A stretch of DNA of 64,000 bases, taken from assembly GCA_963848135.1 (NCBI GenBank), contig CAWKCK010000018.1, positions 200,938 to 264,937 of the forward strand. The letters run 5' to 3'. Under the pieces are notes generated by a model that saw nothing but the letters and a program-made list of their open reading frames with translations, made no database searches and was not told the origin of the DNA. This DNA is from an uncultured delta proteobacterium. GTDB lineage: Bacteria > Desulfobacterota > Desulfobacteria > Desulfobacterales > SG8-13. The translations under genes were made by a program, and so were the position numbers. This document shows positions 1,000-25,791 of the stretch, piece after piece; the stretch's first letter is position 1; each line of letters begins with the position of its first letter.

Positions 1000-1078
<79 letters not shown>

Positions 1079-14056: not shown

Positions 14057-15178
14057 TTGTTGAAAAACGGCAACAAGATCGCTCTCCTTTCGTGCCTGTT
14101 CGCTGCTCTATTTTTCACTCAAGCCGCCGGAAGCCAGGCGATATTATCGCCTGGCAATGACCGCTCTTTTGAGCTTGAAGAATCCCCCGCGTTTTATGCC
14201 AATACCGAAGACGCCATACAGGGCAAGCAAACCGCTCCCCACCATCGCCAGGCATCACCGGCGGCAGCGTCTGACCCACCCCAGAGGATCGTAAGCCGTA
14301 AGGTCGACCAAAAACTTTCAGGGGGAGCAAACAGCCTCTGGCGATGGTTTTTCAATACCGGTTACCGCCATGATGAATTGGATTGGAGTTTTGCGCTACC
14401 GAACATAAACATCCGGTCTGAACTTCAATGGCGTAATTTAGAAGGCATTCAATTTGAATTCGGGTTGCAGCGGCGTCTGGGACGACATTTTCGGCTCAAA
14501 GGCAATCTGGCGTATTCCTTCCTCTTCGATGGCGACAACCAGGATTCCGACTTCAATGGTAATAATCGCTTCGATGAATTTTCCCGATCCAACAACAGCA
14601 CCGAGAACGGAGATCTATGGGATGCCTCCATCGGTCTGGCGTATGACGTGAACCTATTTGCCGACCGTATTGTTCTGTCGCCGCTCGTCGGCTACTCTTA
14701 CCATGACCAGAATCTGCAAATAACCCGCGGGAACCAGACAATACCGCCCCTGGGACCGATTCAAGGGCTCAATAGCAGCTATGACCCGACGTGGTACGGG
14801 CCATGGATCGGCGCGGAATTTTTATACAAAAACTACGGCCAATCCGCACCAAGGCCGGGCTACGAGGCCTTTTTTGGAGTCGAATACCATTTTGCAAATT
14901 TCGAAGCCCAGGCCGATTGGAATCTGCGTACGGATTTGGCCCACCCTGTCAGTTTTCGGCAGGATGCCGACGGGTCGGGGTGGGTCATGATGGGCGGGAT
15001 CAACTACCTTTTCAATCCGCGATGGAGTATAAATTTGATCGGGAAATATCAGAAATGGGAAACCTCTTCCGGAAGACACCGATTTTTCTTTTATGACGGC
15101 ACCTCCTTTCAGACAAGGCTGAACGGTGTGAATTGGGATTCATTCTCGCTTTCAGCGGGGATAACTTGCCGTTTCTGA
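14057..15178 (+). CDS. Outer-membrane beta-barrel protein (omptin-like)
   Basis: Signal peptide, alternating aromatic beta-strands, SELQW and NQDSDF segments, C-terminal Phe. Confidence 0.7.
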   Translation: MLKNGNKIALLSCLFAALFFTQAAGSQAILSPGNDRSFELEESPAFYANTEDAIQGKQTAPHHRQASPAAASDPPQRIVSRKVDQKLSGGANSLWRWFFNTGYRHDELDWSFALPNINIRSELQWRNLEGIQFEFGLQRRLGRHFRLKGNLAYSFLFDGDNQDSDFNGNNRFDEFSRSNNSTENGDLWDASIGLAYDVNLFADRIVLSPLVGYSYHDQNLQITRGNQTIPPLGPIQGLNSSYDPTWYGPWIGAEFLYKNYGQSAPRPGYEAFFGVEYHFANFEAQADWNLRTDLAHPVSFRQDADGSGWVMMGGINYLFNPRWSINLIGKYQKWETSSGRHRFFFYDGTSFQTRLNGVNWDSFSLSAGITCRF

Positions 15179-15415: not shown

Positions 15416-16690
15416 CTAACGATCGAACGACGGCAGATGTCCATCTCGGGTAAACGCCATCGGCCGCCAAGGGGTCAAAAATTCCAAGTCCGGATTCGCT
15501 TCCACTTCTGCAGACAACGATTTCGAAACCTGAAATTTTTCAAGGTATTTTGTGTCCTTAATCCGCACCAGACGGGCCGCTGCCGGATCACTCAGCCCGG
15601 CGGTGCTGGCACAGACGGCGATAGCCTCTTGATCAGTATCGACGCTAAGGGGAACGGCCGCTTTTTCCGGTGAAATGGCTGTGATAGCGTTCATGTAAGT
15701 TTTTTGCATGTCGAGAGCCTCTACCAGGCGACGGGTTGTAACATCCGCCAAACCGATTCCATTGCCGTTGCCGTCGGATCCCGGACTCAGCTCGCGCACG
15801 AAGATGCGTTTGACATGGGGCGCCATATTGAAATCTCCGACAAGGTCTCTGTGGCGGCCGGTAACGTTGGAATCCATACCGATCCCGCTGATGTCCTTGC
15901 CAAAGCGGTCGACCACAAGAATGTCTATGTCGCTAAAGGGAATACGGGCCATCATGGTTGATGCTGCCTTGAGGAGTTTCTTTTCGCCAGCCACAATGTT
16001 CTCCGGTGTTAGCGCTTCAATCCGGGATAAGTCACCAGAGCCGTCCTCCAACAGCGCCAGGCCATAAAGAATCGAACATTTTCGGAGTACGAGGCGAGCG
16101 GCCGCTTCAATAATTGAAAAGGTGTGCCGGACGGCTTGTCGATGAAATTCCGCCGCGCCATCCGCCTTCCCCAGACCGATCGTCAGCATCTTGCACAAAC
16201 CACTTTCGATGTCTGCCCGAAATTTCGTGTGAGGTTTTACACGGTTGATGACAACGATGTGGTCGGCGGCCAATGCTGCCCTGGAAAAGCAGATCTTCGT
16301 GCCATTGGAAAGCCGATCGACGACCTCCACCGCCATGTCAGGCTCGACCGGGATCCCCAAGGTGCTCTCGCAGATACCCAACTTTTCCAGAACGGCATGT
16401 TGTCCCTTGGCCGTCGCACCACCGTGACTGCCCATTGCCGGAACGATGAATGGCTTTAGTTGTTTTTGACACAAGAAATCGATGCACGCACTGGCGACCG
16501 TACCGATGGCGTTGATGCCGCGGCTTCCAACAGCTACCGCCACCGTTTGTCCGGGTTGATAGACCCCGTTAAGATCCAGACCTTTCAAAGCAGCATGAAC
16601 CGCCCCGGGGACATCGACGATCGCCGCCCGATGCAGTTTCTGCCGGACCAGTGCCATATCGGGAAAGGATTGAGAAGTTCTACTCGTCAT
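15416..16690 (-). CDS. LarA-like (lactate racemase domain / DUF2088-DUF362) protein
   Basis: VAVGSRGI, VPAMGSHGG, NRVKPHT, GKDISGIGMD and GNGIGLAD motifs. Confidence 0.7.
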   Translation of the reverse strand: MTSRTSQSFPDMALVRQKLHRAAIVDVPGAVHAALKGLDLNGVYQPGQTVAVAVGSRGINAIGTVASACIDFLCQKQLKPFIVPAMGSHGGATAKGQHAVLEKLGICESTLGIPVEPDMAVEVVDRLSNGTKICFSRAALAADHIVVINRVKPHTKFRADIESGLCKMLTIGLGKADGAAEFHRQAVRHTFSIIEAAARLVLRKCSILYGLALLEDGSGDLSRIEALTPENIVAGEKKLLKAASTMMARIPFSDIDILVVDRFGKDISGIGMDSNVTGRHRDLVGDFNMAPHVKRIFVRELSPGSDGNGNGIGLADVTTRRLVEALDMQKTYMNAITAISPEKAAVPLSVDTDQEAIAVCASTAGLSDPAAARLVRIKDTKYLEKFQVSKSLSAEVEANPDLEFLTPWRPMAFTRDGHLPSFDR

Positions 16691-16893: not shown

Positions 16894-17082
16894 TTAGGTC
16901 TCTTCGACAGTGATGGCGCCAGGTTCGCAAACTTCAATGCAGCTTTCACAACCGAGGCATTCTTCAGCATTCACCGGACTCGATTTTCCGTCCTGCATTT
17001 CAAACACTTCGACTGGGCAAACATCCACACACTCTTCACAACCTTCACATTTGTCCTCATCAACAATGGGGTTGAAAGCCAT
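16894..17082 (-). CDS. Ferredoxin, 2x[4Fe-4S] type
   Basis: Two CxxCxxCxxxC motifs in an acidic 62-aa protein; strong RBS. Confidence 0.93.
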   Translation of the reverse strand: MAFNPIVDEDKCEGCEECVDVCPVEVFEMQDGKSSPVNAEECLGCESCIEVCEPGAITVEET

Positions 17083-17274
17083 AACCGAATTCTCCTTTCT
17101 TGAGATTTTGGAAAAAGGTGATCCACATCACCTGTTGCTTCCAAACATGGAAAAAAGTCTTTATACCAATTAAAAAGGCGAGTCAAGCCTTGTTGTATTT
17201 TTATCGTCGATACAGAAATTCGAATGGATGACCATAAGAATTATCTTTAATTCTTACTGGTTATGAATATAAAT

Positions 17275-18294
17275 TCAAATTTCTATCAAGGCGACAACTG
17301 TGTTTTCTGGTTCTGGACCCAACGTTTGATCTTTCTTTAGAAATTCGGATTGCAGACCGACCGACTTATGAAATAAAGCTCTCGGAGACTTGCCGGCGAT
17401 CAGAAATACCGTCAGTTTTAGCCGCTGTGCGGCATCATCTAATTTGGGAACCATGGGCCAATCCATCCCGGTTGCCGTTTCCAGGGCATGGTTAGCGCCC
17501 GTCACCAACTGGAGCCGATCCAGAAGTTGACGGCGCCAGTTTTTAAAAACTTGCGGATTGTTGCCAACCACTGGAATGTCTTCCATCGTAAACATTTTTA
17601 CAGCATCGGCCATCACGGCAACAGAGTGGTCAACAGCTGGCCGGCTGGTCGTAACAAAAATCCCGGGAAGGTTCGTATCGGCCGACTCGGCAACGCCAGC
17701 CACCAGGAGCCACCAGGCCCGAAGACGCTCTTGGATCATATAGTCCTGCTGCATACCGGAGCCCGTCGCCACAGGACTGGCTGGTTGCGGTGCGGGGGCA
17801 CCGCCGTTCAGTTCGCTGAAAAGCTTTTTCTCGAATTCATCATGCCGCCGCAAGTCTGTCGCCAGGGCTTCGGCCCCCAAGTCCATTTCCTGGGCGATAC
17901 TGAGGAAAACCCTTGCGCTGAAAAACCGCGATACGGACGCCGATTCTCTGGGAATTCTTCCCCTTTTGATGTCGGCCCGAATTTGTGCCACGGACGTCTC
18001 ATCGAAATACGGCACCTTGCCCATGTGTGACCTGAAGTAGTCGAAACCTGTGCGATGCTGGCCACCGTACATGGCAGCCCAATTACGATAGTCCTTCAAC
18101 ACGAGGGCGAGTCGGTCCTCGTCACCTCTTGGTGGAACGATCATTTCAATCAACTCTCCCTGTTCCCATTCACGCATGACGTTAGGGACATCCCGTCGGG
18201 AGGGCTGATATACCACCACGGGGCTAAAACATGTTTGAATCGCCGCCATGCTCGCCACCGGTATGTACGTTTGTGGATAGCAAATGGGTCTCAT
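17275..18294 (-). CDS. Hypothetical protein
   Basis: 339-aa ORF co-oriented with its neighbours; no recognised motif. Confidence 0.65.
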   Translation of the reverse strand: MRPICYPQTYIPVASMAAIQTCFSPVVVYQPSRRDVPNVMREWEQGELIEMIVPPRGDEDRLALVLKDYRNWAAMYGGQHRTGFDYFRSHMGKVPYFDETSVAQIRADIKRGRIPRESASVSRFFSARVFLSIAQEMDLGAEALATDLRRHDEFEKKLFSELNGGAPAPQPASPVATGSGMQQDYMIQERLRAWWLLVAGVAESADTNLPGIFVTTSRPAVDHSVAVMADAVKMFTMEDIPVVGNNPQVFKNWRRQLLDRLQLVTGANHALETATGMDWPMVPKLDDAAQRLKLTVFLIAGKSPRALFHKSVGLQSEFLKKDQTLGPEPENTVVALIEI

Positions 18295-18450
18295 TCTATC
18301 TGCTCCTGCGCTGGTTCGGGGCGATAACCCCCTTATTAAGCATTATCGTATCCGATAGTATCTGATTGACGGCTACCGATGGGGCCTTTGTGTCCGCTGC
18401 CTGACAGCGAAAAGTAAGGCCCGGCCTGAAAACTCCCGCACCCAGGGATG

Positions 18451-20736
18451 TCAGGCGTTCCCGAATTTCTGGTCTTGAACACTCACTCCCATACTTCTGA
18501 GCTGCTCACGAAGCCTATCGGCCACGACCCAGTTGTGGTCGGCGCGTGCCTTATCTCTCTCCCGCACCAGCGCTGCGATGGCCGGGTCGTTTTGCTGACC
18601 GACGAAATCAATCACGTTCAAAACACCGTCCAAACTTTGAAATGCATCGAGGATTTTTCGGGCGCCTTCCAGGTCTATCCGTTGATTCTTAATCAGCTGG
18701 TTTACTTTTTTGACGACTTTGAAGACAGCTGCCAAAGCGGCTGGAATGTTCATATCGTCATCAAGACCGCTGGTGAATCCGTGTCTGAGGTCATATAGTA
18801 GTTGGTCAAGTTCGGGATATGACGGGCCTGACTTCACGCCGCGCAAATTGCGGATGCAATTGTTCAGGCGGTTCAGTGACCGCTGGGCGTCATCCAATCT
18901 ACCCCGCCTAAAGGCCACCGGCTTGCGGTAGGAAGATGTGATCAGCCAGAACCGGATCACCTTGTCTGGGTAGCCCAAGGCTTGCAGATCGGCCAGGGCC
19001 AATCCGGGACTCTTGTTATCTACTTTATGACCATCGGCCAATACCAAATCAGAATCGATCCAATATGTTGCCAGCGGCTTTCCAGTGGCGGCTGTGGCAA
19101 TGGCATTGACATTCTCGTGATGGGGAAACATCAACTCGCGGCTGCTGGCGTGGATGTCAAACTGCTCACCGAGGTATTTATTTGAAATGGCCGAGGCCTG
19201 CAGATGCCAGGACGGCCGCACATTGCCCCACGCGGTTTTTATATAAATACCTCTTTTCAGCTCCGACAAGCGGGCGCGCTTGAACAGGGTAAAATCTCTT
19301 GGATTGTCCTTTTCATATTCGTCCAAGTCAACCGTTGCTCCGATACGAATTTTGTTGATGTCAATACCTGAAAGCTGGCCGTATTGGGATAAACGCGATA
19401 TATCGAAATAAAGGGATCGGAGCTTTTCGTAGGCAAAACCTTTCTGTACCAACCGATCGGCCAGTTCAACCATATCATCGAGATGCTCACTGGTTCGCGC
19501 GAGAATTTCGGCCGGTCTAATGCCAAGGGTATCCAGGTCGTGCCTAAACTGCTCGATATGTCGATTTGTATAAACCCCCAGATCCTCGCCAGCGGCTTCG
19601 GAACCTGAAATCGTCTTGTCATCCAGATCGGCAATGTTTATGACGTGATTGAGTGTGTAACCTCGGAAAACCAAATATCTGCAGAGCAAATCTGAAACAA
19701 TGAAGCGCCGCATTTCACCAAGATGGATCGGTGCGTGGGCCGTCGGTCCGCACGTACAGATGGAAACTTTTCCCGGAACCGCCGGTACAAAGGGTTCCTT
19801 CGATCGGCTCATGGTGTTGAACAACTTTAAATCGACCTTTTCCTTAACGACGAACAGCGGTGTGCTCAAATAGCGTTCCCCGCCGTCGGGTAAAATCACC
19901 ACAATCGTACCGGTCTCCATGGCCTGGGCCTCCCGAGCAGCGATCGCCATGGCCGCACCGCTGCTCATACCAACCAGCAGTCCCTCATCCCGGGCCATAC
20001 GTCGGGTCATTTCAAAGGCCTCTTCGTCATCGATGTTGATCTTTTTATCCAGAAGGTTCTTATCAAAAATTTCCGGGCAGTAGGCCTCCTTCATATTTTT
20101 CAGACCTTGGATTTTGTGGCCAAGATAGGGTTCGATACCAATGATCTGAATCGCCGGATCGTATTCTTTCAACTTTCTGGCCAGGCCCATGAGCGTGCCG
20201 GATGTCCCCAGGGTTGCCACAACGGCGGAGAGTTTCCCCCCGGTCTGCTCCCAGATCTCAACGGCTGTGCCGTTGTAGTGCGCTTGCCAGTTGGCTGGAT
20301 TATTGAACTGATCTGTCATGAAATAGGTTTCAGGATTCTCTCGCACCAAACGGTAGACTTCTTCAATGGCCCCGTCCGTGCCAAGGTGCCCGGGGGTCAA
20401 CAGGATTTCAGCCCCACGGGCTTTTAATATTTTCTGGCGTTCCACACTCACCGCCTCAGACATGGCCAGCAGCAACTGGTAACCCTTGACAGAGCAAACC
20501 AGCGCCAAGCCAATCCCGGTATTTCCGGATGTGGCCTCGATAACGATTTTATCGGCAGTCAGTTCGCCAGATCCTTCGCCAGCTTCGATCATTGACAGGG
20601 CCGCCCGGTCTTTTATGGAACCACCGGGATTGAAATACTCCAACTTAGCCAACACCTTCACCCCCGGATTAGGGTTGAGGTGGCGTATTTCCACCACAGG
20701 CGTATTGCCGATTAGATCGAGAATTGATTGTCCCAT
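18451..20736 (-). CDS. Fusion of PLP-dependent cysteine synthase (CysK/CysM) and a degenerate cysteinyl-tRNA synthetase-like domain
   Basis: First ~295 aa: NPGGSIKDR, EATSGNTG, QFNNPAN, GTSGT. Remainder: CGPT, DDK, RPSWH, FPHHEN, DDDMN and a CysRS-type C-terminal anticodon region. Confidence 0.92.
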   Translation of the reverse strand: MGQSILDLIGNTPVVEIRHLNPNPGVKVLAKLEYFNPGGSIKDRAALSMIEAGEGSGELTADKIVIEATSGNTGIGLALVCSVKGYQLLLAMSEAVSVERQKILKARGAEILLTPGHLGTDGAIEEVYRLVRENPETYFMTDQFNNPANWQAHYNGTAVEIWEQTGGKLSAVVATLGTSGTLMGLARKLKEYDPAIQIIGIEPYLGHKIQGLKNMKEAYCPEIFDKNLLDKKINIDDEEAFEMTRRMARDEGLLVGMSSGAAMAIAAREAQAMETGTIVVILPDGGERYLSTPLFVVKEKVDLKLFNTMSRSKEPFVPAVPGKVSICTCGPTAHAPIHLGEMRRFIVSDLLCRYLVFRGYTLNHVINIADLDDKTISGSEAAGEDLGVYTNRHIEQFRHDLDTLGIRPAEILARTSEHLDDMVELADRLVQKGFAYEKLRSLYFDISRLSQYGQLSGIDINKIRIGATVDLDEYEKDNPRDFTLFKRARLSELKRGIYIKTAWGNVRPSWHLQASAISNKYLGEQFDIHASSRELMFPHHENVNAIATAATGKPLATYWIDSDLVLADGHKVDNKSPGLALADLQALGYPDKVIRFWLITSSYRKPVAFRRGRLDDAQRSLNRLNNCIRNLRGVKSGPSYPELDQLLYDLRHGFTSGLDDDMNIPAALAAVFKVVKKVNQLIKNQRIDLEGARKILDAFQSLDGVLNVIDFVGQQNDPAIAALVRERDKARADHNWVVADRLREQLRSMGVSVQDQKFGNA

Positions 20737-20905
20737 CTTTACCCACCGTTGATTCAGTGTTTTCTTCTTTTGTGTCTACCAATCAATGCTCGATGGCATG
20801 CTTGCGTGTTCCATTTCGGGATGGAAACGTTATAGATCCATTGTCGCCGACAAACCCAGAGCAGCTAACACGAATTTGAAAAGCCGAAAGGCTCGAAACA
20901 TTCGT

Positions 20906-21541
20906 TTAGGACTTTAGCACCTGCCGAAGGCCGATCAGGATTTCGTTCTGAACCGTACGGGGGTCGTGTGACGCATCGACGACATAAAAACGCTCCGGTT
21001 CGCTGCGAGCGATGGTCTGGTAGCCGGCGCGGATCTTTTCATGAAAAGTCAGTGCTTCCTCTTCAAACCGGCTTTCATCTCCGGTCCGCCCACCGTTTTT
21101 GATTTGAGCCCAGGCTCTTGCCAGCCCGATTTCCGGTGACACATCCAGCAGGATGGTTAAATCCGGCTTCAAGGCACCAAGGATTGCCTGGTGAATCCGC
21201 CGGATCAACTCTAAATCCAATCCTCGTGCGTATCCTTGATAGACGATCGTCGCATCGTAGAAGCGGTCACACAGAACCGTACGCCCGGCCGTCAGGGCAG
21301 GCATGATGATTTTATGCACATGTTCGACCCGATCAGCCTCATATAGAAAAAGCTCGGCCAGGGGATCGATCTGTCGGTTGGCCGGATTCAAAAGGATCGC
21401 ACGAATATTCTCTCCGATGCCGGTCCCACCCGGTTCGCGTGTGACCAGGACATTGTGACCCTGGTTTTCCAGAAAACGGCGGATGTTGCCCAATTGGGTG
21501 GATTTTCCCGAGCCTTCAATACCTTCCAGGGTGATAAACAT
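20906..21541 (-). CDS. tmk: Thymidylate kinase
   Basis: FITLEGIEGSGKST, TREPGG, LCDRF motifs. Confidence 0.96.
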   Translation of the reverse strand: MFITLEGIEGSGKSTQLGNIRRFLENQGHNVLVTREPGGTGIGENIRAILLNPANRQIDPLAELFLYEADRVEHVHKIIMPALTAGRTVLCDRFYDATIVYQGYARGLDLELIRRIHQAILGALKPDLTILLDVSPEIGLARAWAQIKNGGRTGDESRFEEEALTFHEKIRAGYQTIARSEPERFYVVDASHDPRTVQNEILIGLRQVLKS

Positions 21542-21544
21542 TTT

Positions 21545-22510
21545 CTAATCCTGTCCCCCAATTTCGCTGCGGCCGCGGTAGAAATGCCGTTCCAGAAGGC
21601 GATGATAGGATGTCCAAGGCTCGTTGGGATTCTCACCGGCCATGAAATCACGAATGCCGTTAACGCGAGCATCGATTTCATCGATATAATTGAGCAGCAC
21701 GGCCTCGATGGTCTTGGGTGGTTCCGGGGATCCGAATTCACGGGCGCCGTGATGACTGATGATCATATGCTTCAGCAATACAGCCTGTAGTGGTGGAAAA
21801 TCCTCTAGCATGCGCAGCTTTTCCTCGAGAATCTGGACGGCAATAACAATGTGGCTGACCAGCCGGCCTTCATCAGAATAATCGATCTTCGAATCGTATT
21901 CAAACTCGCGAATTTTTCCGATATCGTGCAGAATTGCCCCGGCGATCAACATATCTCTATCGATACCGCTGTAATGGGGAATGATCCGGTCCGCCAGAAC
22001 GGTCATTGACAGGGTGTGTTCCAGCAAGCCCCCGAGATAGGCGTGGTGCATTTTTTTTGCTGCCGGCGCTGTCTTAAAGGCCCGGGTAATTGAATCGTCT
22101 GCCCAGAAAAGATCAAACAGCCGCTTAAGGTGAGAGTTGTTCAAACCGTCGGTTATTTCCACCAGGCGGGCGAACATCTTGTCTACATCCCGGCTGGTGG
22201 CCGGCACGTAATCCACCGGGTCCACCGCTTCCGGCGGGCTGACCGCCATGTCCTTGACAACAAATTGGAGGGCGCCTTTATATTCCGCGATGGAGCCCTT
22301 GACGCGGACGAATTCACCGGGATTGGCGGTGCCGGCAATCCGGTCGACATGATCCCATACAACACCTTTTATCCGCCCGGTTCTATCGGCCAGTGAAATG
22401 GTAAGGTAATTTTCGCCGTTACGTTTTTGGGCGAGGTTCTTTTCAGCCAAAACAAAAATTTCCTCGACGGTATCGCCTGCCCGTAAATCTTGGGTGAATA
22501 TATTTTTCAT
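21545..22510 (-). CDS. 3'-5' exoribonuclease YhaM family (OB fold + HD domain)
   Basis: N-terminal OB fold, HHAYLGGLLEH, LHDIGK, SHHG motifs. Confidence 0.88.
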   Translation of the reverse strand: MKNIFTQDLRAGDTVEEIFVLAEKNLAQKRNGENYLTISLADRTGRIKGVVWDHVDRIAGTANPGEFVRVKGSIAEYKGALQFVVKDMAVSPPEAVDPVDYVPATSRDVDKMFARLVEITDGLNNSHLKRLFDLFWADDSITRAFKTAPAAKKMHHAYLGGLLEHTLSMTVLADRIIPHYSGIDRDMLIAGAILHDIGKIREFEYDSKIDYSDEGRLVSHIVIAVQILEEKLRMLEDFPPLQAVLLKHMIISHHGAREFGSPEPPKTIEAVLLNYIDEIDARVNGIRDFMAGENPNEPWTSYHRLLERHFYRGRSEIGGQD

Positions 22511-22580
22511 GTTCTCACTATCTGTAATGATCTATATTTAATATATTGAAACTATCATGCGATCGGGGGGCGAATTCGGA

Positions 22581-23347
22581 TTACAGTTCGACCACCCATC
22601 TCTTTATTTCGGATAAGGCGTCGTAATCGGTCATATCGCATTTGATAGGTGTAATGGAAATAAATTTTTCTTCCAATGCCCTACCATCACTGTCCGGGAT
22701 CTTTTCAAATCGCTGGACGTCACAGCTTTGCCAATAATAAGGACGGTTACGCGGATCGATACGTTTATCAAAGATTTCCACTGAATCGGCCAGACCTTGG
22801 CGACTGACACGCACTCCGGCAATATCCTCGATGGCCGTGTTAGGAATATTGACATTCAAAAACGTTCCGGACGGCAATCCGGTTTGACGAACTTTGTCGA
22901 TAAGTCTGGCAATAAAACTGGCGGCCTCATCATAATGAACGTATGAACCGTGTCGTTGACTTCCATCGATACAGCAAGTGCCGGGACACCACAAAGCGTG
23001 GCTTCTTTTGCCGCGGCCACAGTACCGGAATAGTTTATATTGACACCCACATTGGCCCCTGGATTTATCCCTGATATGACCATGTCCGGCTTTGTGCCGA
23101 GGAGCTCAATCAAGGCCAATTTTACGCAATCGGCCGGCGTTCCGCTTACAGCATAACCGTTGCCTCCACCGTTTGCGAGGACCCAGGATGCACGGATCGG
23201 TTGGTTTAACGTAATCGCATGTCCGATCGCGCTGCGTTCCCGGTCGGGCGCCACCACCGTCACAGTGTGAAAGTCCTTGAGTCTCCGGTAAAGCGCCCAC
23301 AAACCCTCGAAGTAAATGCCATCGTCATTCGTCAGCAATATGTTCAT
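22581..23347 (-). pseudogene. surE: 5'/3'-nucleotidase SurE, frameshifted near 22935-22951
   Basis: [27 protein letters not shown] in one frame; LNVNIP...SITP in another; junction is an 8-nt near-tandem duplication. Confidence 0.85.
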
Positions 23348-23448
23348 GTCGGTATCCGTTCTTGACTTTTTCCAACAGGTTGGCTTTTATACTGCAAATT
23401 CTCACCAGGTTCAACTGGGTTTCCCAAATTACCGCCACAGAAGGTCTG

Positions 23449-25791
23449 ATGACGCATCCATCCGCATTAACCACCACGCTCATCACTCAGCACCAGGATG
23501 AGAAATCCGGCAGGGTCATTCAGGCTCTGCATTCGCGATTCGGCGCTATCTTCCTACTGGTGCACTGTATCTGCCTGATATTGAGTATCACCCCGCTTGA
23601 GGCCCAGGACATCGACACCTTCATGGACAGCTTTAAAGGGGACGATTCCGCACTGCCATGGATCATAGAGGCCGACACGCTCAATTACAATGACATCAGC
23701 AGTCAATACACCGCTGAGGGGCGTGTCGTCATTCGCAAAGGCGATCGCGTTATCAGTGCTGACCGGATCCATTTCGACAAACAGAACATGACCGCCATGG
23801 CCGAGGGAAATGTTCGCGCGACAGCCGGCAGTGACTTTTTGACCGGCCAGCGGGTCGAACTCGACTTGCTGAAAAAAACCGGTACGGTTTATGATGGCTA
23901 TCTATATCTGCGGGAGAACAATTTTCACATCAAGGGCCAAACCATTCGCAAGACCGGTGAAGATACTTACGAAATCGAAAAAGCCAGCCTGACCACCTGT
24001 GATGGCGATCTGCCGGATTGGCGTATCACCGGCAACAGAGTCCGCGTCACAGTTGAAGGATTCGGCGAAGTCAGGGGCGCTACACTGCGTGCCAGAAGAT
24101 GGCCGGTTCTCTATTCTCCGATCCTTTTCTTTCCGGCCAAGACCAAGCGCCAGTCGGGCCTGCTGTTCCCCCAAATGGGGGTTTCCGATCGATGGGGATA
24201 CTTTATCAACCAGCCGCTTTTCTGGGCCATCAACGACAGCGCCGATGCCACGTTCTATGCAAATTACATGACCGAACGTGGCATCAAAATGGGCGGAGAA
24301 ACACGATACTTCTTGAGCGAAACCACCAAAGGTGCCTGGATGCTCGATTACCTCAACGACCACAAAATAGATAACGGTCTGGATGATTCCAGCGAAAAAT
24401 GGGGCTATGTGGGCGATGGCGTCCTGCGTCCCAACCGGGATCGGTACTGGTTCAGGGGCGGGCATTATTTCTCGGCCCCCATGGGCATGCGTGCCAGGCT
24501 CGAACTTGATATCGTCAGCGATCAGGATTACCTGACGGAATTCAAAAGCGGCTATTCGGGATTTGATACCTCCCGTGAGTACTTCCTACGCACTTTCAAC
24601 CGACAGTTGGATGATTTCACCAATCCGGACCGACTGAACCGCTTCGATCTTGCCCGCACTTGGGACAAGTACAACCTGGACATCGACTTCCGCTGGACAG
24701 ACGATGCGGTCAAACGACGCTTCGAGGAGACCGATGATACGCTGCAGCGGTTGCCGCTGATCCTTTTCACCGGCATCAAACAGCAAGTTTTCTCCTCGCA
24801 GTTTTTCTTCGACATCAACTCCAACTACAATTTTTTTTACCGCAAGGACGGCGACCGCGGGCAACGTCTGGATGTGTATCCACGCCTTTACAGGCCATTG
24901 CGCTTTGGTCGTTATTTTACCCTCGAACCATCCATCGGGCTTCGGGAAACCCTCTGGTGGGTTTCTCCGGAGGAGAATTCTGTCTTGGGAAACAACGGCG
25001 ACCGCTTTCTAAACCGATCTTTGTGGGACGGCAGAGCGGAAATGACCTCAGAAATATTCAATGTCTTCAACGTTGATCGGAAAAGGATCGAGAAGATAAA
25101 ACACACCATTCGACCGAAAATAATTTACCAATACACGCCCGACATCGAACAAGCGGATCTTCCCAGCTTCGATGCCATCGACCGCATCCTGCCCGAAAAT
25201 ATTGTCACCTACTCCATTACCAATTTTTTAATTTCCCGGGCCCTCCAACTCTCGGGGAACAAAGAAGACGACCGCGCGTCTCCCCGATACACTTACAACC
25301 AGTTCTTCCGCTTCAAGCTCGAACAGAGCTATGATTTCAATGAATCCCGAGGTATCGGCATAGAGGCTGGTGAGGATCGGCGTCCATTTTCACCCATCGG
25401 CGCTGAGCTCGATATTTTTTGGTTGCCCGAGGTTGTCCTTGACTCGGATGCAAAATGGGATATCTACGACAACCGGCTCGATGAGGGCAACGTCGGATTG
25501 CGGCTATCGGATTTACGCGGAGATACGCTGGCGGCAGAGTATCGCTATACCCGTTTTGAAACGGAATCCATATACGCAGACTTGCTCATCCGGTGGAATG
25601 AGGCCGTGTCGACCGGTTTCCTGTACGAACGGAACCTCCGCACGGGTAAACGGTTGCAGGCTGGTGCCAGATTGCTCTATCGTGCTGGTTGCTGGGGCAT
25701 CGGCATCAATTATCTCGATGAACCGTTCAACCGCAGAATAGAATTTTCAATTGAGCTTTTCGGCCTGGGTGAGTTTAAGACCGCCTACTAA
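23449..25791 (+). CDS. lptD: LPS-assembly protein LptD
   Basis: OstA-like N-domain (IEADTL, TTCD...W), RQSGLLFP, large beta-barrel ending ...GCWG...LFGLG. Confidence 0.88.
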   Translation: MTHPSALTTTLITQHQDEKSGRVIQALHSRFGAIFLLVHCICLILSITPLEAQDIDTFMDSFKGDDSALPWIIEADTLNYNDISSQYTAEGRVVIRKGDRVISADRIHFDKQNMTAMAEGNVRATAGSDFLTGQRVELDLLKKTGTVYDGYLYLRENNFHIKGQTIRKTGEDTYEIEKASLTTCDGDLPDWRITGNRVRVTVEGFGEVRGATLRARRWPVLYSPILFFPAKTKRQSGLLFPQMGVSDRWGYFINQPLFWAINDSADATFYANYMTERGIKMGGETRYFLSETTKGAWMLDYLNDHKIDNGLDDSSEKWGYVGDGVLRPNRDRYWFRGGHYFSAPMGMRARLELDIVSDQDYLTEFKSGYSGFDTSREYFLRTFNRQLDDFTNPDRLNRFDLARTWDKYNLDIDFRWTDDAVKRRFEETDDTLQRLPLILFTGIKQQVFSSQFFFDINSNYNFFYRKDGDRGQRLDVYPRLYRPLRFGRYFTLEPSIGLRETLWWVSPEENSVLGNNGDRFLNRSLWDGRAEMTSEIFNVFNVDRKRIEKIKHTIRPKIIYQYTPDIEQADLPSFDAIDRILPENIVTYSITNFLISRALQLSGNKEDDRASPRYTYNQFFRFKLEQSYDFNESRGIGIEAGEDRRPFSPIGAELDIFWLPEVVLDSDAKWDIYDNRLDEGNVGLRLSDLRGDTLAAEYRYTRFETESIYADLLIRWNEAVSTGFLYERNLRTGKRLQAGARLLYRAGCWGIGINYLDEPFNRRIEFSIELFGLGEFKTAY

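Follow-up and report, generated by a model that had tools for sequence, protein, structure and literature searches.

The stretch of DNA analyzed here (the window, 64,000 nucleotides of contig CAWKCK010000018.1 from an uncultured delta proteobacterium, positions 200,938 to 264,937) carries on its minus strand, at 18451..20736, a gene that joins a cysteine synthase to a cysteinyl-tRNA synthetase (CysRS)-like protein. The reading frame is uninterrupted, starts with ATG and encodes 761 residues followed by a stop codon, in agreement with an earlier note on this DNA that had described it as intact, and four Pfam domains are recognized in the product: PALP (residues 6-284, E = 5.6e-71), tRNA-synt_1e (316-618, E = 9.4e-69), DALR_2 (654-707) and CysS_C (718-757). 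These matches confirm that the gene encodes a pyridoxal 5'-phosphate (PLP)-dependent domain of the CysK/CysM type and a full-length CysRS-like body in one polypeptide. The cysteine synthase domain, identified by PALP and TIGR01136, occupies residues 1-298 (19843..20736; all features of the gene are on the minus strand), with the codon of the PLP lysine, Lys42, at 20611-20613. It is followed by a very short linker (residues 299-302, 19831..19842), the CysRS alignment beginning at residue 303; structure-database alignments leave about seven residues between the two regions of homology. Residues 303-625 (18862..19830) comprise the CysRS-like Rossmann, connective peptide (CP) and KMSKS-loop region, assigned by tRNA-synt_1e, in which fixed substitutions have rebuilt the active site, and residues 626-761 (18454..18861) comprise the helical-bundle (DALR) and C-terminal anticodon-binding domains, assigned by DALR_2 and CysS_C. 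The motifs of the first half are SIKDR (40-44), TSGNT (69-73) and GTSGT (177-181), and those of the second are HLGE (338-341), VRPSWHLQASAI (506-517), DIHASS (527-532), HHENV (539-543), YWID (558-561), KVDNKS (571-576) and R..AR...NW..AD.LR (727-743); alignments place every motif change listed in the earlier note at these residues.

The N-terminal half looks like an active cysteine synthase. It aligns end to end with the O-acetylserine sulfhydrylases 3zei and 2q3b (E = 7e-76), and the fusion protein scores 355.7 bits (359 bits in the genome search) with TIGR01136 (cysKM), above the cut-off of 344.15; the PLP domain scores between the CysK and CysM equivalog models and reaches neither cut-off. 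Of 8000 candidates scored in a word-indexed protein search with the fusion, 7878 matched at E ≤ 0.001, and the best 120 of these matches (all 758-776 residues long, 67-100% identical and containing both PF00291 and PF01406) were aligned together. Lys42 is present in 119/120 of these fusions, the TSGNT loop, which in CysK enzymes grips the free substrate carboxylate, in 120/120, and G177, T178, G180 and T181 in 120/120, with S179 in 104. This half is also the slowest-evolving part of the protein (when this genome is compared with six others, 76-85% of its residues are identical and 53-69% of those in the CysRS-like half). Moreover, a tally of search tables, in which matches to TIGR01136 were counted at E ≤ 1e-50, makes the fusion the sole cysKM-family match in 31 of its 129 carriers in the order Desulfobacterales, including the closed or near-closed genomes G027, G129 and G067. 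Because no other gene of the family was found there, the fusion would have to make the free cysteine in those 31 carriers.

The C-terminal half aligns with CysRS over its full length, from residue 303 to residues 756-759 (E = 2.7e-88 with 8qhp and 1.4e-71 with E. coli 1li5). It was compared, using E. coli numbering, with 58 stand-alone CysRS sequences, E. coli K-12 cysS and the genome's own CysRS. The 58 canonical sequences were chosen for intact HIGH, WH.EC, HH..E and KMSKS motifs, so that their 100% conservation in these motifs is a consequence of the selection; the anticodon and other positions were not selected on. Relative to this set, the fusions carry the fixed changes Y33H, H40E, G204S, E208Q, G226S, D229E, Q241I, M267V, S268D and K269x, with G204S in 118/120 and E208Q in 120/120. 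The HIGH remnant, HLGE (19714..19725), retains its His (H338) in 112/120 and its Gly (G340) in 110/120 of the homologues and ends in Glu (E341) in 112/120, while the KMSKS remnant, KVDNKS (19009..19026), has Asp at the S268 equivalent (residue 573) in 107/120 and, at the K269 equivalent (residue 574), most commonly Glu (78/120), with Asn in the window protein. Acidic residues at the fourth HIGH position, S268 and K269 would put negative charge where the ATP phosphates bind, a pattern that speaks as much against neutral decay as against the formation of an adenylate. The non-canonical residues R507, S509 and Q513 are themselves fixed in 118-120 of the 120 fusions. The earlier note had counted the altered HIGH motif among the signs of inactivity; its acidic fourth residue is indeed unusual, but the loss of the fourth His is not, as canonical CysRS have either H or N at this position and the genome's own canonical enzyme reads HIGN.

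At the zinc-binding quartet (C28, C209, H234 and E238 in E. coli) the window protein reads C329, A514, H539 and V543 (CAHV), with the codon of the retained C329 at 19750-19752 and those of A514, V543 and the retained H539 within 19108..19197. Two of the four ligands are therefore changed, as the earlier note had claimed, and T68 and H256 are also missing from the window protein. The loss does not extend to the family as a whole: all four ligands are kept in 62 of the 120 closest homologues (CCHE), which also keep W205 and T68, 32 have lost only E238 (one of these lacks C209 instead), and 26, the sub-clade that includes the window protein and P0002-P0018, have lost C209 and carry H256D, some lacking C28 as well. 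Judged by these patterns, the cysteine and zinc pocket is probably still in use in the full-quartet members and dispensable in the window-type protein. The CP insertion is the best-conserved part of the CysRS-like half (mean column conservation 0.92).

The genome (6.03 Mb, 98.65% complete) also contains a stand-alone, canonical cysS on contig C3 (440.3 bits; HIGN, WHIEC, HHTNE and KMAKS), answering a check that the earlier note had proposed: the fusion is not the only CysRS of its genome. With TIGR00435 (cysteine--tRNA ligase, EC 6.1.1.16) the fusion itself reaches 313.6 bits, below the cut-off of 340. Taken with the missing KMSKS, the acidic residues at HIGH-4, S268 and K269 and the lost zinc ligands, the low score and the separate cysS make it very unlikely that the CysRS-like half cysteinylates tRNA, as had been proposed. 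A stand-alone cysK (442.3 bits) adjoins a cysE-like gene (166 bits, below the equivalog cut-off). Two tRNA-Cys(GCA) genes (C4:277396-277470 and C5:310020-310094) and one tRNA-Sec gene are present; the two tRNA-Cys genes show 12 differences over 75 positions, most of them in the anticodon stem, and both have G1, U73 and an encoded CCA. Neither SepRS (best TIGR00470 match 25 bits, cut-off 380.65) nor SepCysS (best TIGR02539 match 27.7 bits, cut-off 365.25) was found in the genome, the sub-threshold matches being unrelated paralogues.

The residues that read the anticodon are a different matter. R423, R427, W432, D436, R439 and D451 are each invariant in 120/120 fusions; the first five correspond to R727, R731, W736, D740 and R743 of the window protein (18508..18558). 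According to the available part of PMC13449415, R427, W432, D436 and R439 are anticodon contacts of E. coli CysRS in the structure 1U0B. The same residues are kept, with R/K and W/F/Y exchanges allowed, in six very divergent fusions, among them proteins that have lost all catalytic residues, and in an 87-sequence alignment to which very divergent fusions were added R727, D740 and D755 do not vary, with R731, W736 and R743 at 90% or more. The earlier suggestion that this half serves as a tRNA-Cys-binding module thus looks well founded at the level of its contact residues, and the CysRS-like half can probably bind tRNA-Cys but not aminoacylate it.

Within the order the fusion is almost a core gene, and it is common in the phylum. 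At a best E ≤ 1e-160, tallied from the search table, it is present in 129 of the 151 sampled genomes of the order, a few copies being partial or split at contig ends, and 149/151 have some match; in a sample of the phylum, 104 of 251 genomes matched at E ≤ 1e-110, with families mostly all-or-none. A scan of genome contigs found 28 near-full-length loci (L017-L044), all in records assigned to Desulfobacterales, Desulfobacteraceae, Thermodesulfobacteriota or 'Deltaproteobacteria'/'Proteobacteria', and the named entries among the best 120 matches, from Desulfobacterales-type organisms, are called 'cysteine--tRNA ligase', 'cysteinyl-tRNA synthetase' or 'cysteine synthase'. Matches to the cysS family that exceed its cut-off occur in 141/151 genomes of the order, a number that is not purely of stand-alone cysS because some fusions exceed the cut-off. 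All five of the closed genomes tested in other orders contain both a stand-alone cysS (535-598 bits) and a fusion (355-457 bits). From this wide distribution and the fixed non-canonical residues, we judge that the fusion is not decaying neutrally. As separate observations, the stand-alone CysRS scores across the order fall into two classes, at approximately 415-450 bits (including this genome) and 520-607 bits, which suggests two cysS lineages, possibly reflecting replacement by gene transfer; the single-contig genome G065 has its fusion in two distant pieces (C1:5988054-5989550, residues 1-499, and C1:802624-803388, residues 502-756); and genome G125 has two full-length copies, on C20 and C18.

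Representatives at 50% clustering reveal a graded series of fusion types. Some, such as P0122 and P0280 (from a Deltaproteobacteria metagenome-assembled genome, MAG), have near-intact CysRS motifs. Fusions in closed genomes of other orders are intermediate, and among them are proteins with KMSRS and all four zinc ligands that reach 444-457 bits with the cysS model. The ATP site is gone from the main Desulfobacterales clade, and the Desulfovibrio ferrophilus-type proteins (P0126, P0129 and P0131) have lost HIGH, C28, C209 and H224 and kept the anticodon readers. A further protein, P0124 (768 residues, from a Nanoarchaeota MAG, DPANN), joins CysK to a fully canonical CysRS (HIGN, WHLEC, HHQNE and KMSKS). 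A rapid maximum-likelihood tree was built from 68 sequences, namely 31 canonical ones, every sixth fusion of the 120, six divergent fusions and 11 others. The Shimodaira-Hasegawa-like approximate likelihood-ratio test gives its main fusion clade 100% support, and the near-intact forms are placed between this clade and canonical CysRS; P0124 is nested inside canonical CysRS and is therefore an independent fusion. The direction of change is only suggested, because the root is a midpoint root and several supports are 82-95. Across the series we read tRNA-Cys recognition, from its conserved residues, as the feature common to all fusion forms.

Together, these results are consistent with a functional cysteine synthase joined to a pseudo-CysRS that recognizes tRNA-Cys but does not charge it, an interpretation to which we give an even chance. 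In this scheme the N-terminal half would be a competent PLP-dependent O-acetylserine sulfhydrylase of the CysK/CysM type that makes free cysteine. The C-terminal pseudo-CysRS would neither bind ATP productively nor form Cys-AMP, and the zinc site that would grip cysteine also appears lost here; retaining the CysRS fold and the readers of the GCA anticodon, it would bind tRNA-Cys that the fusion itself does not charge. Binding of tRNA-Cys would then most likely tether, or allosterically link, cysteine synthesis to the tRNA-Cys pool or its state, providing a built-in demand sensor with a logic like that of the HisRS-like domain of the kinase GCN2. In this respect the data are compatible with the regulatory role that the earlier note had suggested as one possibility, by analogy with HisZ or GCN2. 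We infer the loss of aminoacylation, the retention of tRNA binding and, above all, the regulatory coupling. A more specific form of the proposal, in which the inactive CysRS half would be dedicated to sensing the charge of tRNA-Cys through conserved anticodon and acceptor contacts and would directly control the synthase joined to it, is possible but tentative, and we consider it doubtful as it stands.

Several observations weigh against the proposed tRNA-reading synthase. An AlphaFold2 model of the full protein (87 sequences) shows two well-folded halves and has a mean predicted local distance difference test score (pLDDT) of 86.1 and a predicted template modelling score (pTM) of 0.60, with pLDDT below 50 at residues 296-300 (the linker), 463-473 and 713-716 and at the C-terminus; given this pTM and the low-confidence linker, no fixed orientation of the domains is predicted. 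When the two halves were folded as separate chains they gave a complex score of 0.56 (best of three controls, 0.03), with runs agreeing in at least 90% of contacts and partner pLDDT of at least 84. Of 157 solved complexes, 116 reach the mark set for this score, as do 2 of 215 mismatched pairs, and scores of 0.60 or less take in only 18 of the solved complexes together with both of the mismatches that pass, so the model gives a weak indication of a defined contact between the halves. The helical-bundle and anticodon-binding region is the fastest-evolving part of the protein (44-55% identity; divergence 2.2-2.65 times that of the CysK half), and therefore only a few residues there are tightly held; the argument for retained tRNA binding is one from residue conservation, and the counts over the 120 homologues are not independent, because these are the best matches to the window protein and are mutually related. 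In addition, K266, H37 and G39 are mostly kept across the fusions, making some residual nucleotide binding possible, and the neighbouring genes (surE, yhaM-like, tmk and lptD) are housekeeping genes without a sulfur or tRNA theme.

The alternative that fares best is that the CysRS-like half is a structural relic, which binds no ligand and is kept for folding, solubility or oligomerization of the synthase. The rate data lend it some weight. At matched CysK-half divergence (about 0.17), the ratio of catalytic-like to CysK-half divergence is 1.18 in the 62 full-quartet fusions, 1.21 in the 32 that have lost E238 and 1.79 in the 26 of the window's sub-clade, so that the catalytic-like core is relaxing in the last group; the pairs behind these ratios are not independent and the sample is biased to relatives of the window protein. 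They measure relative amino-acid divergence and not the ratio of nonsynonymous to synonymous substitution, as the relatives with DNA available are approximately 75% identical in protein and their synonymous sites would saturate. In the same six comparisons identity is also lower for the CysRS-like half (53-69%) than for the canonical CysRS of these genomes (70-77%), so that the former evolves faster, and the Desulfovibrio-type fusions lack nearly all active-site residues. However, a relic leaves unexplained both the anticodon contacts, present in 120/120 fusions, in 26/26 of the window's sub-clade and even in the most degenerate forms, and the fixed, non-canonical Q513, S509 and R507. We consider it unlikely.

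A second alternative, modelled on HisZ, is an end-product sensor in which free cysteine would occupy the inactive pocket and thereby regulate the attached synthase by feedback. It is plausible for the 62 of 120 members that keep the zinc quartet, W205 and T68, and whose catalytic-like core is under almost the same constraint as the CysK half (1.18). The window protein, on the other hand, lacks C209, E238, T68 and H256, a loss common to its sub-clade of 26, and with these residues gone zinc-thiolate binding of cysteine is unlikely there; nor does the alternative explain the kept anticodon readers. HisZ itself is not known to have an anticodon-binding domain. As an account of the window protein we find it improbable. 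Residual or altered aminoacylation, whether slow charging, charging with another amino acid or a non-standard activation chemistry, is more improbable again. In its favour, the window protein keeps the first His and the Gly of HIGH, K266, R42, D69, D72, W205, H206, H224, H234 and H235, and some of the fusions from other orders retain KMSRS and the zinc quartet with their 444-457 bits; but the window protein has Asn for K269, Asp for S268, Glu at HIGH-4 and only two of the four zinc ligands, the cysS model score lies below its cut-off and the genome has a canonical CysRS. Finally, chemistry on the tRNA, in which the PLP half converts the aminoacyl group of tRNA-Cys (as SepCysS does, or from Cys-tRNA to a persulfide or selenocysteine), has precedents in SepCysS and SelA, PLP enzymes that act on aminoacyl-tRNA, and would suit a PLP enzyme lying some seven residues from a tRNA-Cys-reading module, but the SepRS/SepCysS-like option raised in the earlier note sits poorly with the absence of both enzymes from the genome (25 and 27.7 bits), the invariant TSGNT loop that in CysK holds a free carboxylate, the need for free cysteine in the 31/129 carriers where no other cysKM gene was found and the closeness of the PLP domain to ordinary O-acetylserine sulfhydrylases (e.g. 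3zei and 2q3b), leaving on-tRNA cysteine synthesis by the fusion unlikely and, to us, the least credible account of all.

The tRNA-reading synthase can be set beside several known systems. With canonical CysRS (E. coli CysS, 1LI5 and 1U0B; closest solved structure 8QHP) it shares collinear Rossmann, CP, helical-bundle and anticodon domains, but it lacks KMSKS, has an acidic HIGH-4 and, in the window protein, two lost zinc ligands, and it occurs as an additional copy joined to CysK. Its N-terminal 298 residues, with intact motifs, correspond to CysK/CysM (M. tuberculosis CysK1, 2Q3B and 3ZEI; E. coli CysM, 2BHS), to which the fusion adds a C-terminal pseudo-synthetase of 460 residues. HisZ, a HisRS paralogue, is the regulatory subunit of ATP phosphoribosyltransferase with HisG; it is a separate subunit, is not known to have an anticodon-binding domain and senses the free amino acid. 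The fusion resembles it in joining an aminoacyl-tRNA synthetase paralogue, which its motifs suggest is inactive, to an enzyme that makes the cognate amino acid, and differs in that the link is covalent, the anticodon readers are its best-kept feature and the zinc site is lost in the window protein. The eukaryotic kinase GCN2, which has a HisRS-like domain, binds many uncharged tRNAs. There, too, a dead synthetase domain thought to bind and not to charge tRNA is fused to an effector, but the effector of the fusion is a metabolic enzyme, and the contacts it retains are those specific for the anticodon of tRNA-Cys.

Cysteine synthesis, a PLP enzyme and tRNA-Cys also come together in the SepRS/SepCysS system, as described in the available part of PMC5424206; the PLP fold of the fusion is of the CysK type and not the SepCysS type, and both genes are missing from the genome. 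The nearest published system, to judge from the accessible sections of Mukai et al. 2017 (PMC5389517), is CysS* of Desulfobacterales, an extra CysRS paralogue that has no anticodon-binding domain and is encoded downstream of selC* and selB*; the authors propose that it charges a special tRNA-Cys(UCA). The fusion was considered as a CysS* and rejected, as it has both DALR_2 and CysS_C, is fused to CysK and has tmk and a 339-residue open reading frame (ORF) as neighbours, the only RNA gene in the window being the tRNA at 1000-1073. It was likewise rejected as MshC, the mycothiol cysteine ligase, scoring 166.5 bits with TIGR03447 against a cut-off of 485.1; MshC, described as an ATP-dependent ligase in the available part of PMC2922099, is a CysRS paralogue and so resembles the fusion as a CysRS-derived protein with a non-translational role.

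The minus-strand gene order around the fusion is surE (as two overlapping frames), an OB/HD YhaM-like nuclease gene, tmk, the fusion and the 339-residue ORF, with lptD divergent upstream; of the 28 related loci, many of them short, 11-16 contain homologues of these neighbours. The downstream ORF (17275..18294, minus strand) has a homologue in 13/28 fusion loci, many of them truncated, and may be functionally linked to the fusion. It matched no Pfam or NCBIfam family, and its best Atlas score (0.85, to an unnamed cluster) is a lead only. No riboswitch or T-box was found in the window, where an Rfam scan at gathering thresholds returned only the tRNA gene at 1000-1073 (plus strand; RF00005, 62.8 bits), the single RNA-family match; a permissive Rfam scan of 20600-21000 gave one meaningless match (E = 0.85), and a promoter and terminator scan of 17000-23500 gave counts not above those of shuffled sequence. 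The split surE (22581-23347, minus strand), in which 22856-23347 covers SurE profile positions 1-133 and 22581-22994 covers positions 133-185, suggests a frameshift or a sequencing error. Elsewhere in the window, 15416-16690 (minus strand) encodes a nickel-pincer-cofactor-dependent (LarA-like) isomerase of group 22 (NF052515, 473 bits, above the cut-off of 400) and 14057-15178 (plus strand) a beta-barrel of the Pom family (Protochlamydia outer membrane protein; PF17251, E = 1.9e-57).

No description of a CysK-CysRS fusion was found in the full-text literature searched, a scope that lies apart from supplements (including the cysS-paralogue figures of Mukai et al.) and subscription journals. The available portions of PMC2922099, PMC5388404, PMC5389517 and PMC13188885 contain no description of it, and that of PMC5424206, on SepRS/SepCysS, does not mention it. 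Regulatory pseudo-synthetases are known (HisZ and GCN2), but a tRNA-specific reader joined to an enzyme for the same amino acid was not found in the literature searched. Thousands of database entries for the fusion protein are labelled 'cysteine--tRNA ligase' or 'cysteinyl-tRNA synthetase', a job for which the sequence argues that the window-type protein is unfit, and reconstructions that count the fusion as a CysRS, or that miss its cysteine synthase role, will be wrong. Being nearly a core gene in a major sulfate-reducing order, common across the phylum and the only recognizable cysteine synthase in approximately one quarter of its carriers, the fusion bears on central sulfur assimilation, and its graded series, from near-intact forms through loss of the ATP site and then of the zinc site to proteins with little left but the anticodon readers, amounts to a natural experiment on which function is selected. 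If the charge-sensor form of the proposal were true, tRNA-Cys would switch the PLP site on or off, and cysteine output in these sulfide-rich bacteria would be set at the level of the enzyme by translational demand; the logic of GCN2 would then have a metabolic parallel in bacteria, and the fusion would be the first example of an amino acid synthase under allosteric control by the cognate tRNA.

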